The notes: generated by a model from the letters alone, not told the origin. 24,000 bases of DNA from Neisseria sp. (GCA_030531795.1 JAUNMN010000009.1:27883-51882); one strand, 5' to 3'; counted from the first letter of the stretch, positions 2,700 through 12,548 are shown. A program made the numbers and translations.

Positions 2700-3767
2700 T
2701 TAGAATTTGTGTACCAAGCCAACCAAACCAGCTGTAGTTTTGGTTTTGCCTTCGCCAGTAGAGTTCAAAGATGTATCAACACCGTTTTCTTTCAACCAGC
2801 CTGCTTGTGCAAATGCAGTTGTGCGTTTAGAGAAATCGTAATCCACGCCTACAACAACTTGTTCGTATTCGCTGTCGTTTTGTTTCTTACCAGTCGCGAT
2901 ATCTTTTGCTTTGAAACCGTGAGCGTAAGACACTTTAGGCGTTACGTTACCGAATGAGTACGCACCAGTTACAGCAACTTCGTGAACTTTACGAGCGTCG
3001 CCCCAACCTTTAGCAAATTGGTAGCCAACAGTTGCTGCGATGTTGTTTGCGTTGTAACCACCTTCTACGCGGTGAACTTGTGCATCACCTGTATGTGTTT
3101 TACTAGCTGCATCTTTATAGCTATAGCCTTCTTTCTTCAGACCAAAACCATATTTAGCGAAGAAGCCAGCGTTTTCGTAGTTCAAACCAGCGTAGTAAGC
3201 AGAAGTATCGCCTTTATCATTTGCATCTGGTTTGTATTCGCTACGACCAGTGTCAGCTTGGTTGTCGCGTGGAACGTATTGTACGTTACCGCTGAAACCT
3301 GCCACTACTGGAGAATCGTAGCGTACAGAAACTACTTTCTCACCAGTGCGAGTGAATTTGCTCAAGCCCAAAGCTTTGTTCTTGTAAATCCATGGATCAA
3401 CTTGACCCATATCGTCCAAAGCAGTACCTACTTTACCTGCTTTGATAGTACCAGCTTGGCTTTCCAAACCGATGTAACCCAAACGGCTTGCCCAGCGTGA
3501 ATCAGTACCAGCAACAGAAGTACTTTGCTCTAATTTCCAAATTGCGTTCAAGCCGTTGCCCAAATTCTCATGACCTTTGAAGCCGATGCGTGAACCCAAA
3601 TCTTGGATTTGAGTGGTTACAGGTGTTTCTTTTTTCTTATCGTTCCAGCCAGTTTGTTTAGTTTGGCTAACTTCAACACCAGCGCGGATTTGACCATACA
3701 AAGTTACATCTGCAACTGCTGCAGTTGACAAAGCTGCCAAAGACAAAGCAATCAGAGTTTTTTTCAT
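2700..3767 (-). CDS. por: Neisserial-type trimeric porin (major outer membrane protein, PorB-like)
   Basis: The 355-aa product has the signal peptide MKKTLIALSLAALSTAAVA followed by DVTLYGQIRAGVEVS, the classic neisserial porin N-terminus. It has alternating beta-strand composition and a C-terminal ...GLVGLVHKF with terminal Phe. Confidence 0.93.
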   Translation of the reverse strand: MKKTLIALSLAALSTAAVADVTLYGQIRAGVEVSQTKQTGWNDKKKETPVTTQIQDLGSRIGFKGHENLGNGLNAIWKLEQSTSVAGTDSRWASRLGYIGLESQAGTIKAGKVGTALDDMGQVDPWIYKNKALGLSKFTRTGEKVVSVRYDSPVVAGFSGNVQYVPRDNQADTGRSEYKPDANDKGDTSAYYAGLNYENAGFFAKYGFGLKKEGYSYKDAASKTHTGDAQVHRVEGGYNANNIAATVGYQFAKGWGDARKVHEVAVTGAYSFGNVTPKVSYAHGFKAKDIATGKKQNDSEYEQVVVGVDYDFSKRTTAFAQAGWLKENGVDTSLNSTGEGKTKTTAGLVGLVHKF

Positions 3768-9507: not shown

Positions 9508-9996
9508 ATGTCACAAACCATCACTTTAGATAAAACCGATTTAAAAATTTTGCAAGTTTTGCAAAGCAATGGTCGCCTAACCAATGTGGAGCTTTCAGAA
9601 CGCGTTGCCTTGTCGCCATCGCCTTGCTTGCGCCGTTTGAAGCAGCTGGAAGACGCGGGCATTATTCGCCAATACGCCGCTTTGCTCTCGCCCGTGCATG
9701 TGAATTTGAGTTTGCAAGCCTTTATTCGCGTATCGATTGACAAAGCCAGCGAAGCGCGTGAACAGTTTGCCGACGCAGTGCAAACGTGGCCAGAAGTATT
9801 GAGCTGCTTTGCTTTGACGGGCGAAACCGATTATTTGTTGCACACCTTCTTTTCAGACATGAACGCCTTCTCGCGCTTTGTGTTGGAAACCTTGCTGTCG
9901 CACCCAGGCGTGCAAGATGCCAAATCCAGCTTCGTGTTAAAAGAAATCAAAAACACCACCGCTTTGCCTTTGAGCCACTTGCAAAGCGAAGCGTAA
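9508..9996 (+). CDS. lrp: Lrp/AsnC-family transcriptional regulator
   Basis: The 162-aa product has the N-terminal wHTH LDKTDLKILQVLQSNGRLTNVELSERVALSPSPCLRRLKQLEDAGIIRQY and a C-terminal RAM-type domain (LTGETDYLLHTFFSDMNAFSRFV). It is divergent from the gcv operon. Confidence 0.9.
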   Translation: MSQTITLDKTDLKILQVLQSNGRLTNVELSERVALSPSPCLRRLKQLEDAGIIRQYAALLSPVHVNLSLQAFIRVSIDKASEAREQFADAVQTWPEVLSCFALTGETDYLLHTFFSDMNAFSRFVLETLLSHPGVQDAKSSFVLKEIKNTTALPLSHLQSEA

Positions 9997-10019: not shown

Positions 10020-10065
10020 GATGCCGTCTGCAACTCAAAACTGCAGACGGCATCATGTTTTTCAT
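10020..10065 (+). repeat. Left copy of a direct repeat: DUS-pair terminator after lrp plus about 10 bp of flank
   Basis: GATGCCGTCTGCAACTCAAAACTGCAGACGGCATCATGTTTTTCAT. The hairpin is at 10021-10053 and is followed by T5. Compare the right copy at 11817-11866. Confidence 0.8.
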
Positions 10066-10243
10066 AGCCTTGTTCACGCCATTCAAATTTTATTAAATCA
10101 TTAATTTATTCAATATCTTAACTTATTTCACACTAAAAATCCCACACTTGCCCTATTGCCATATCCGCGCGACACAATTACATTACGCCAAACTACAATC
10201 GCCACAAAATGCTTATTTTCCAACAGCTTGTAGGAGGTAAATC

Positions 10244-10315
10244 ATGTACACAATGTTTTATCTTGACGCTCAGTGGTTTAATCTCGACCACCAGCTGGTT
10301 TGCTGTTTTCCATAA
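10244..10315 (+). CDS. tnaC: TnaC-like tryptophanase operon leader peptide (23 aa)
   Basis: This ORF is too short for the ORF track. TAGGAGGT lies 5 nt upstream of ATG 10244. The peptide is MYTMFYLDAQWFNLDHQLVCCFP followed by stop. The W-F-N-(I/L)-D core and a Pro as last codon match E. coli TnaC (..KWFNIDNKIVDHRP-stop) with identical spacing: Trp to Asp is 4 and Trp to Pro is 12. It ends 72 nt upstream of tnaA. Confidence 0.75.
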   Translation: MYTMFYLDAQWFNLDHQLVCCFP

Positions 10316-10333
10316 TTTCCTTTTTTGCAAATA

Positions 10334-10367
10334 GTTGCGCCATGTTTTTCGTGGCAACGATTTTTTT
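10334..10367 (+). terminator. Weak candidate intrinsic terminator or attenuator in the tnaC-tnaA spacer
   Basis: GTTGCGCCA (10334-10342) pairs imperfectly with TGGCAAC (10352-10358), with one bulge. It is followed by GA and T7 (10361-10367). The stem is short and the loop is 9 nt, so this is low confidence. Confidence 0.3.
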
Positions 10368-10387
10368 ATCGCAAAAAAGGAAAATCC

Positions 10388-11803
10388 ATGAATACGTTTA
10401 AACATCTCCCCGAACCTTTTCGCATTCGCGTGATTGAACCCGTGAAACGCACCACGCGTGAATACCGTGAACAAGCCATTTTGCGCGCAGGCATGAATCC
10501 ATTTTTGTTAGACAGCGAAGATGTGTTCATCGATTTGCTCACCGACAGCGGCACAGGCGCGATTACTCAAGAAATGCAGGCGGCAATGTTGCGCGGCGAC
10601 GAAGCCTACAGCGGCAGCCGCAGTTATCACACTTTATGCAAATCGGTTAAAGACATTTTTGGCTACGACTACACCATTCCCACTCATCAAGGACGCGGTG
10701 CAGAACAAATCTATATCCCTGTTTTGATTCGAAAACGCGAGTTGGAAAAAGGTTTAGACCGCAACAAAATGGTGGTGTTTTCCAACTATTTTTTTGACAC
10801 CACGCAAGGACACAGCCAAATCAATGGTGCAACGGTGCGCAATGTGTACACCGCCGAAGCGTTTGACACCGCCGTTAAAGCCGATTTCAAAGGCAATTTT
10901 GATTTGGAGGCGTTGGAGCAAGGCATTTTGGAAGTGGGCGCAGCAAACGTGCCTTATATTGTCGCCACGATTACCTGCAACTCGGCTGGCGGTCAGCCTG
11001 TGTCAATCGCCAACCTAAAAGGCATGTATGCCATCGCCCGTAAATACGATATTCCTGTGGTGATGGATTCGGCGCGTTTTGCGGAAAATGCTTATTTTAT
11101 TCAGCAACGTGAAGCCGAATTCCAAAGCAAAAGCATCGCCGAAATCACGCTCGAAGCCTATCAATACGCCGATTTGCTGGCGATGTCGGCGAAAAAAGAT
11201 GCCATGGTGCAAATGGGCGGTTTGCTGTGTTTCAAAAACCAAGAAATGCTGGACGTATACACCGAATGCCGCACACTTTGTGTGGTGCAAGAAGGTTTTC
11301 CGACTTATGGTGGCTTGGAAGGCGGCGCGATGGAACGTTTGGCGGTGGGTTTGCACGACGGTATGCGTGAAGACTGGCTGGCGTATCGCATTGCGCAAGT
11401 GCAGTATTTGGTGGACGGTTTGGAAGCCATCGGCGTTGTGTGTCAGCAAGCTGGCGGTCATGCTGCGTTTGTGGACGCAGGCAAATTGTTGCCACACATT
11501 CCCGCTGAACAATTTCCTGCGCAGGCGTTGGCGTGTGAATTGTATAAAGTGGCAGGCATACGGGCGGTAGAAATCGGTTCGTTTTTGCTTGGACGCGACC
11601 CGAAAACAGGTTTGCAATTGCCTTGCCCAGCCGAGTTGCTGCGTTTGACGATTCCGCGTGCCACTTATACCCAAACGCACATGGATTTCATCATTGAAGC
11701 CTTTGCCAAAGTGAAAGAAAACGCACAGAACATCAAAGGTTTAACGTTCACTTACGAACCTAAAGTCTTGCGTCATTTCACGGCTTTATTGAAAGAAGTG
11801 TAA
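10388..11803 (+). CDS. tnaA: Tryptophanase (tryptophan indole-lyase)
   Basis: I chose the start at ATG 10388 (AAGGA RBS), giving 471 aa: [28 protein letters not shown]...[19 protein letters not shown]...[18 protein letters not shown]...[15 protein letters not shown]...[19 protein letters not shown]. It is nearly collinear with remembered gammaproteobacterial TnaA and has the same length as E. coli TnaA. The listed ORF start at 10325 adds 21 implausible residues. Confidence 0.95.
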
Positions 11804-11816
11804 AGCCAAAACGTGT

Positions 11817-11866
11817 GATGCCGTCTGCAACTCAAAATCGCAGACGGCATCAAATGTGTTTTTCAT
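11817..11866 (+). repeat. Right copy of the direct repeat: DUS-pair terminator after tnaA plus flank
   Basis: GATGCCGTCTGCAACTCAAAATCGCAGACGGCATCAAATGTGTTTTTCAT. In the 35-bp core it differs from the left copy only by a CT/TC dinucleotide swap. A 4-bp indel precedes the shared TGTTTTTCAT. Confidence 0.8.
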
Positions 11867-11963
11867 CATCATTTTGTGAACAAAAGTTTACCACCTTCGC
11901 ATTGTCCACACGCACACTAATAATGCTAAAATCGCCTTTTTTTCTGACGCTTTCACCCGATTT

Positions 11964-12548
11964 ATGTCCATCAATCCAGAACAAATCCGCGAACACACCC
12001 AACAATGGCTGGAAAAAGCCGTGATTGGTTTGAATTTATGCCCGTTTGCCAAAGCACCGTATGCCAAAAATCAGGTGCGCATTGTGGTAAGCCAAGCCAA
12101 GCACAGCGATGCGTTTTTGGAAGACCTCGACCGCGAATTGCAATTCATTGCGGCAACACCAGCCGATGAATGCGAAACGACTTTGCTGGTTCACCCCACT
12201 TTATTCGGCGACTTTTTGCAGTTTAACGATATGTTGGACTTTGCCGAACAAGCGATTGAAGATAACGATTTGCTCGGTGTGATTCAAATCGCGCCGTTTC
12301 ACCCCGATTTTCAATTTGATGGCACCGAAGCCAGCGACATCAGCAATTACACCAACCGCTCGCCCTACCCAACTTTGCACTTAATCCGCGAAGCCAGTAT
12401 TGAAAAAGCCGCCCAAGCCTTTCCCGACCCTGCGGCGATTTTTGAACGCAACATCGCTTTGTTGAAAAAAATGGGCAAAGCAGGCTGGGACGCGCTGGAT
12501 TTGCCGTCTGCAGACGGCATCGCCAAACAAACGGAACATTCATCATGA
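11964..12548 (+). CDS. DUF1415-family protein, function unknown
   Basis: The 194-aa product contains WLEKAVIGLNLCPFAKAPY...IAPFHPDFQF...NYTNRSPYPTLHLIRE, as remembered for DUF1415 proteins of beta- and gammaproteobacteria. Its stop overlaps the next start (ATGA). Confidence 0.75.
   Translation: MSINPEQIREHTQQWLEKAVIGLNLCPFAKAPYAKNQVRIVVSQAKHSDAFLEDLDRELQFIAATPADECETTLLVHPTLFGDFLQFNDMLDFAEQAIEDNDLLGVIQIAPFHPDFQFDGTEASDISNYTNRSPYPTLHLIREASIEKAAQAFPDPAAIFERNIALLKKMGKAGWDALDLPSADGIAKQTEHSS

Follow-up and report, generated by a model that had tools for sequence, protein, structure and literature searches.

A tnaC-tnaA cassette without tnaB, bracketed by duplicated uptake-sequence hairpins, in an uncultured Neisseria predicted to produce indole

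How does a Neisseria come to carry a tryptophanase gene of the gammaproteobacterial type together with a TnaC-like leader and no adjacent tnaB permease gene, and what would such a locus do for its host? The question is raised by a 24-kb stretch of DNA, here called the window, in which an intact tnaA gene of foreign origin is inserted with its leader between an Lrp/AsnC-family regulator gene (lrp) and a DUF1415 gene. No tnaB accompanies it, and a native Mtr-like permease is encoded elsewhere in the genome. We propose that, in an old event, a Neisseria of the N. animalis group would have captured tnaC-tnaA horizontally between lrp and the DUF1415 gene, and that a resident uptake-sequence hairpin terminator would have been duplicated, leaving one copy on each side of the cassette. 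The source would be the tnaCAB operon of a clade now found in other oral Neisseria and in Cardiobacteriaceae, with tnaB left behind or deleted at or after capture. A native Mtr-type permease encoded elsewhere would then import tryptophan, which TnaA would split into indole, pyruvate and ammonia, and the organism would be indole-positive. Taken as a whole, this account of a functional captured cassette that has dropped tnaB and relies on Mtr-type import in an indole-positive organism is, in our judgment, likely to be correct.

The window sits on a 53.7-kb contig of a draft genome of 1.67 Mb (G000; 68 contigs with scaffold gaps, 86% complete, contamination 0.11%), which belongs to a genus of 97 species genomes in a family of 176. 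It contains a PorB_Neis-type porin gene (2700-3767) and 30 copies of the uptake sequence GCCGTCTGCA. Across the genome, the 12-mer ATGCCGTCTGCA is present in 1243 copies, versus only 10 of the canonical GCCGTCTGAA; copies of the 12-mer in the window include those at 10022-10033 and 11819-11830. Inverted pairs of uptake sequences (DUS) number 279 in the genome, and their loops are nearly all unique. The GCCGTCTGCA form is the 'aniDUS' dialect described for Neisseria animalis (2025 preprint, bioRxiv 10.1101/2025.10.24.684340), from which we conclude that the host is an uncultured member of the N. animalis group within Neisseria. The Neisseriaceae background assumed in a preliminary description of the window is thus borne out by the placement of the genome in genus and family, by the porin, and by the uptake sequences of both window and genome. 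The features of the locus are collected in Table 1.

Table 1. Features of the tna locus and its flanks, in window coordinates.
Feature	Position	Strand	Basis
lrp, Lrp/AsnC-family regulator gene; native left flank, outside the acquired DNA	9508..9996	+	NF008370
Left inverted-DUS hairpin; lrp terminator and left border of the insertion	10020..10055	+	direct repeat family D1
Candidate sigma-70 promoter for tnaC-tnaA, TTGCCA-17-TACATT	10156..10184	+	consensus scan, 9/12 positions
tnaC-like leader ORF, 23 codons, MYTMFYLDAQWFNLDHQLVCCFP-stop	10244..10315	+	translation, W-x3-D-x7-P-stop pattern
tnaC-tnaA spacer, 72 nt, structured	10316..10387	+	predicted RNA fold
tnaA, tryptophanase (tryptophan indole-lyase), 471 aa	10388..11803	+	TIGR02617, E. 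coli TnaA alignment
Right inverted-DUS hairpin; right border of the insertion	11817..11852	+	direct repeat family D1
DUF1415 gene; native right flank	11964..12548	+	PF07209, 240 bits

The identity of the enzyme is clear. The tnaA frame is free of stops over its 471 codons, and its product scores 950.9 bits with the tryptophanase equivalog model TIGR02617 (EC 4.1.99.1; curated cut-off 825.8 bits), covering profile positions 1-467 of 467. The tyrosine phenol-lyase model TIGR02618 gives 470.9 bits, below its cut-off of 720.7, and the Pfam Beta_elim_lyase family is matched as well. Alignment with the crystallised E. coli TnaA (PDB 2c44) runs from end to end at 925 bits without a gap, with 406 of 471 residues identical (86%), and the window protein keeps every one of Y74, D137, R230, K269, K270, Y307, R419, H463 and F464 (E. 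coli numbering); the catalytic roles of these residues, including that of the PLP-binding lysine, we take to be those of established enzymology. The near-collinearity with gammaproteobacterial-type TnaA that had been remarked from the window alone therefore holds over the full length, and the N- and C-terminal strings then quoted are found in this product. Against its relatives, tnaA shows a dN/dS of 0.026-0.035; such strong purifying selection since the gain argues that the gene is in use. Furthermore, trpB and trpE were found in the source genome, so that TnaA would be catabolic rather than a stand-in for tryptophan synthesis. [quoted passage not shown]

Both genes flanking the cassette are native. 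The lrp product scores 138.5 bits with the Lrp model NF008370, which is below the cut-off of that model. Its orthologues (87-90% identity) adjoin those of the DUF1415 gene (69-78% identity) in three relatives (G098, G101 and G067), where the site is empty and reads lrp, a single DUS hairpin, DUF1415. The filled site of the window reads lrp, hairpin, tnaC, tnaA, hairpin, DUF1415. Its two hairpins form a 36-nt direct repeat, 94% identical, that brackets tnaC-tnaA, and their loop variant is found in only 3-4 of the 279 DUS hairpins of the genome. The right hairpin starts 14 nt downstream of the tnaA stop codon, with no remnant of tnaB in between. The gain of the cassette therefore came after the divergence from G098 and G101; otherwise these two lineages have cleanly lost it. 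The four Neisseria tna loci occupy four different chromosomal sites: lrp-tnaCA-DUF1415 in the window, tnaCAB-putA in the nearest relative (L101), luciferase-like gene-unnamed ORF-tnaCAB-pnp in G096/L105, and M48 peptidase-tnaCA-YfiH-like-uvrB in G067.

The distribution of the enzyme is equally patchy. A TnaA above the TIGR02617 cut-off is encoded by just 6 of the 176 Neisseriaceae species genomes: three in the genus of the host (the source genome, G067 and G096), two in genus g9 (G021 and G022) and an Alysiella-labelled MAG (G156). The window protein is 84-87% identical to the TnaA of Pasteurellaceae, Enterobacteriaceae and Vibrionaceae and thus belongs to the gammaproteobacterial-type radiation, as the preliminary description had it; its closest relatives, however, are not the Enterobacteriaceae named there. 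The nearest homologue (P0005/L101) comes from another Neisseria, whose contig carries 4-5 canonical DUS; it is 92% identical to the window protein and pairs with it at 93/91 support. Cardiobacteriaceae TnaA are 89-92% identical, and the closest named sequences are Cardiobacteriaceae MAGs. In trees rooted on tyrosine phenol-lyases, which have a poorly supported backbone and a very long branch at the root, Neisseriaceae sequences occupy at least three places. The window TnaA is placed with uncultured Neisseria and with Cardiobacteriaceae, the sequences of g9 and Alysiella are joined to each other, and that of G067 lies inside rodent Pasteurellaceae; Cardiobacteriaceae, Pasteurellaceae and Vibrionaceae sequences are interleaved with those of Neisseriaceae. 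AU tests, on groups chosen after a first tree had been viewed, reject a single clade for all nine Neisseriaceae TnaA sequences (p = 0.00016) and likewise for a set of five Neisseria sequences drawn from the lineages of the window, P0005 and G096, with G067 left out (p = 0.0019).

No signal of foreign composition was found in tnaA when its GC, GC3 and codon-usage likelihood were compared with the genome: GC is 0.494 (genome mean 0.495), GC3 is 0.537 (genome mean 0.536), and the codon-usage fit lies at the 82nd percentile. This host-like composition rules out a recent transfer and leaves transfer as such untouched; the comparison, which had been suggested at the outset as a check on foreign origin, thus gave no foreign signature, and we take this to reflect an old event and not a refutation. 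The nearest homologue shows only 80% nucleotide identity, a dS of about 1.7 or more and a dN/dS of 0.035. Together with the host-like GC3 and codon usage, this divergence indicates a gain that is old and fully ameliorated. Given the weak backbone of the tree, its long-branch root and the saturated dS, we claim no donor; as the nearest homologues are from Neisseria and Cardiobacteriaceae, the immediate source was probably a co-resident oral bacterium. Horizontal acquisition of tnaC-tnaA is well supported by its patchy occurrence, its incongruent tree, the empty site in relatives and the flanking direct repeats, while the direction and mechanism of transfer are what we infer from this picture.

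The short ORF upstream of tnaA is a putative leader of the TnaC type. Its motif, W11-x3-D15-x7-P23-stop, is common to E. coli TnaC and to the leaders upstream of tnaA in the nearest relatives, and its WFNxDH signature is shared with the latter; its score with the TnaC model TIGR02616 is 16.3 bits, below the cut-off of 23.55. The 72 nt between tnaC and tnaA compare with 220-266 nt in Enterobacteriaceae and with the 54-107 nt usual in the subclade of the window and in G067, and could hardly accommodate a rut site or Rho pause sites. RNA from 10300-10400 has a predicted MFE of -27.5 kcal/mol (z = -4.3, 200 shuffles). In the predicted fold, a U/C-rich stretch directly downstream of the tnaC stop codon pairs with the tnaA Shine-Dalgarno sequence, and this outer helix encloses a hairpin with a U7 run that was flagged as terminator-like and resembles an intrinsic terminator. 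At high free tryptophan, a ribosome would stall at the end of tnaC; held at the stop codon, it would disrupt the outer helix and make the tnaA ribosome-binding site accessible, so that tnaA would be expressed. Read in this way from its sequence, tnaA would be inducible by tryptophan.

In E. coli, tnaCAB is subject to TnaC-mediated, Rho-dependent attenuation and transcribed from a CRP-dependent promoter. The window resembles this operon in its TnaA (86% identical, with catalytic residues conserved) and in the W-x3-D-x7-P-stop spacing of its leader. It differs in the absence of tnaB, in the 72-nt spacer, in a leader that scores below the TIGR02616 cut-off, and in a predicted fold over the tnaA ribosome-binding site in place of the long Rho-type spacer of about 220 nt. 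The switch in the window may thus be a translational, or an intrinsic-terminator, version of the E. coli one. As to the candidate promoter of Table 1, the consensus scan around tnaC gives no more sigma-70 matches in the region than in shuffles, and the assignment is a putative one. A second, weaker direct repeat (10129-10157 and 11913-11941; 29 nt, 72%) has an offset of 1784, nearly equal to the 1797 between the two DUS hairpins. What was duplicated may at first have been the entire lrp-DUF1415 spacer with the promoter of DUF1415 in it; in that case, a diverged copy of this native promoter may now drive tnaC.

Among 80 related loci, 76 encode a TnaB homologue directly downstream of tnaA, and the window truly departs from them in having none there. 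No Trp_Tyr_perm gene was found in the window, and the next gene after tnaA is indeed the unrelated DUF1415 gene, as the preliminary description had stated. Within the TnaA/TnaC subclade of the window, tnaB is kept wherever the flank suffices to tell (L001, L002, L004 and L101-L105); the ancestral cassette therefore most likely had it. The view that only sensor and enzyme had been retained or acquired is accurate for the locus itself, with its tnaC and tnaA, but not for the genome, which encodes a single member of the Trp_Tyr_perm family: an Mtr-like permease on contig C68 (L092; G000:C68:33046-34406, minus strand). This permease scores 426 bits with TIGR00837, above the cut-off; its best model is the Mtr-type NF007789, at 420 bits and below the equivalog cut-off of 515, which makes tryptophan its presumed substrate. 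Orthologues with 74-88% identity are present in 82 of the 97 genomes of the genus, marking the gene as native. The gene is split in the assembly, and we considered and rejected a frameshifted pseudogene: what looks like a frameshift is a scaffold gap of 100 N, to either side of which about 19 codons are duplicated, an assembly artefact. We assume the gene to be intact. An AroP-type permease (PF00324) was sought in the draft genome without a match, and a search for mtr, tnaB and aroP homologues, as had been advised, thus returned the Mtr-like gene alone from a draft whose 86% completeness could leave another permease or a further copy of tna unassembled.

To judge from these sequences, the native Mtr-like tryptophan permease probably covers for the missing tnaB and would be the one that supplies TnaA with its substrate. 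Among the six TnaA-positive genomes, the source genome and G067 have the native Mtr-like permease and no tnaB, and G096 and G156 have tnaB and no such permease; G021 and G022 have neither and must import tryptophan otherwise. This partition is suggestive of complementarity between Mtr and tnaB, although six related genomes are too few for a test. Gammaproteobacterial-type tnaA genes without tnaB are also seen in other betaproteobacteria, namely in a Pelistega sp. MAG (L077; Alcaligenaceae) and in the two g9 genomes (L085/L098 in G021 and L086 in G022).

The preliminary description regarded Neisseriaceae as classically indole-negative and predicted an indole-producing neisserial organism. Such a Neisseria is already on record with Neisseria leonii, an indole-positive species from rabbit whose tnaA is 81.1-81.3% identical to that of E. 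coli (Int J Syst Evol Microbiol 2024, PMC11316581). One of our genomes, G067 (complete, 2,206,085 bp, regional GC 56-57%), fits N. leonii, including in its DUS type (AG-DUS) and in the identity of its TnaA to that of E. coli (80.9%). Like the source genome, it belongs to Neisseria and has a gammaproteobacterial-type TnaA, a TnaC-like leader set off from tnaA by a short spacer (69 nt in G067), no tnaB (none within 6 kb in G067) and a native Mtr-like permease, the only one of this kind in G067. The acquisition was nevertheless a separate one: the G067 TnaA is 81% identical to that of the window and nests with rodent Pasteurellaceae, its tna genes lie between the M48 peptidase and YfiH-like genes, next to uvrB, and its lrp/DUF1415 site is empty. 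The hosts also differ in GC (57% in G067, 48% in the host of the window) and in DUS dialect. Since N. leonii is indole-positive and G067 has the same layout, this analogy is the best available evidence that the layout of the window would yield indole.

Nearer to the window in sequence are the tnaCAB loci of uncultured Neisseria and Cardiobacteriaceae (L101, L105/G096, L001, L002 and L104), which belong to its TnaA subclade with 87-92% identity and share the leader signature RWFNxDHKLSxFFP and spacers of 54-107 nt. Unlike the window, they have retained tnaB, and their places in the chromosome are different ones; G096 lacks the native Mtr-like permease that the source genome has. The classical parallel is offered by Haemophilus influenzae, another naturally transformable mucosal bacterium that gained tna horizontally; its tna cluster is the subject of Martin et al. 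(J Bacteriol 1998, 'evidence for horizontal gene transfer'). The tna island of H. influenzae is reportedly flanked, according to the same authors, by direct repeats containing the uptake signal sequence, which would parallel the duplicated DUS hairpin of the window. The sampled Haemophilus loci differ from the window in keeping tnaB, and host family and uptake sequence differ as well.

Could tnaA have been present in the ancestor of Neisseriaceae and then been lost from nearly all lineages? Such vertical inheritance would agree with the fully host-like composition of the gene and with a nearest homologue on a contig bearing canonical Neisseria DUS, joined to the window protein at 93/91 support. 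It is nevertheless very improbable, as it has to be reconciled with a gene present in 6 of 176 genomes, with AU tests that reject monophyly for the family and also for the window, P0005 and G096-type set without G067, with four Neisseria loci at four sites and an intact, single-hairpin empty site in three relatives, and with the interleaving of Cardiobacteriaceae, Pasteurellaceae and Vibrionaceae among the Neisseriaceae sequences. The outcome that would have told against the preliminary description, closest homologues that are vertically inherited betaproteobacterial enzymes, is countered by the same distribution, AU result (p = 0.00016) and empty sites. A segment from a co-occurring Cardiobacteriaceae or Pasteurellaceae might also have been mis-joined into a Neisseria contig during assembly or binning, as the draft state of the genome, with its 68 contigs, scaffold gaps and 86% completeness, and the Cardiobacteriaceae MAGs as closest named TnaA would allow. 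This we find scarcely credible: tnaA is flanked to its left and right on the 53.7-kb contig by Neisseria genes and aniDUS, the junctions lie within the DUS hairpin of the host, present here in duplicate, estimated contamination is 0.11%, and tnaA has the GC3 and codon usage of the host, whereas the Cardiobacteriaceae genes reach a GC3 of 0.76-0.79 and are only 76-78% identical at the nucleotide level. A search for sequencing runs containing the locus, as a source of junction-spanning or expression reads, returned none.

With a horizontal gain of an authentic gene as the preferred reading, there are alternatives concerning its use and its source. TnaA also catalyses beta-elimination of cysteine and serine as well as the reverse synthesis of tryptophan, and an intact tnaA might then have a role other than indole signalling, be it desulfhydrase or deaminase activity on cysteine and serine, the supply of nitrogen and pyruvate, or the conversion to tryptophan of indole that neighbours have made. 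These known side reactions, the annotation of close homologues as 'cysteine desulfhydrase' in some sources, and a tryptophan flux that could be limited without a dedicated low-affinity tnaB speak for such a role. We think it improbable in view of the presumed tryptophan-sensing leader of the TnaC type, kept and conserved with its clade, of trpB and trpE, which make salvage of indole unnecessary, and of N. leonii, which has the same layout and a positive indole test (PMC11316581). Concerning the source, the cassette may have come from a donor that already lacked tnaB, with no loss in the lineage of the window. Loci of this kind exist (G067, G021, G022, Pelistega and three Vibrionaceae), and in the window only 14 nt separate the tnaA stop codon from the right junction, without a tnaB remnant. 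However, the loci that lack tnaB fall in other TnaA clades, and the flank-sufficient members of the subclade of the window all have tnaB (L001, L002, L004, L101-L105); we regard a tnaB-less donor as unlikely, if worth keeping in mind, and favour capture from a tnaCAB operon.

Beyond the window, a Neisseria sp. bearing tnaCAB (P0015; L105-L108) has a TnaA 87% identical to that of the window and contigs rich in both GCCGTCTGAA and CCTGTCTGAA; as it occurs in 96 blocks of the metagenome collection, tnaA-carrying Neisseria are not rare in the sampled communities. Other Neisseriaceae have different beta-eliminating lyases (L087 in G154, L088 in G172 and L089 in G152): two are tyrosine phenol-lyases, with TIGR02618 scores of 935 and 846 bits, above the cut-off, and one is of the NF009709 tryptophanase subfamily. 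One of the tyrosine phenol-lyase genes adjoins a permease gene of the Trp_Tyr_perm family. Phenol or indole production may be scattered more widely in Neisseriaceae.

A broader and more tentative idea, which we put forward as possible rather than likely, is that oral Neisseriaceae have captured tna repeatedly, at least 3-4 times, from co-resident, indole-positive Pasteurellaceae or Cardiobacteriaceae, by transformation and at duplicated DUS hairpins, with tnaB kept only where Mtr is absent. If this were true, uptake-sequence hairpins would serve generally as landing pads for newly gained genes, and selection in Neisseriaceae of animal mouths would have favoured indole production recurrently. 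The understanding of tryptophanase itself is unchanged by the locus described here. Its site, with one uptake-sequence hairpin in relatives and two flanking the tna cassette in the window, provides a useful before-and-after case of gene addition in competent bacteria. The window also adds a second, independently acquired tnaC-tnaA cassette without tnaB in Neisseria, after that of N. leonii, and the further tnaCAB-bearing Neisseria and Alysiella-group genomes suggest that indole production would have been gained several times in animal-associated Neisseriaceae. Indole is a signal between species and towards the host, and diagnosis uses the indole test as a key in which Neisseriaceae are scored as negative.
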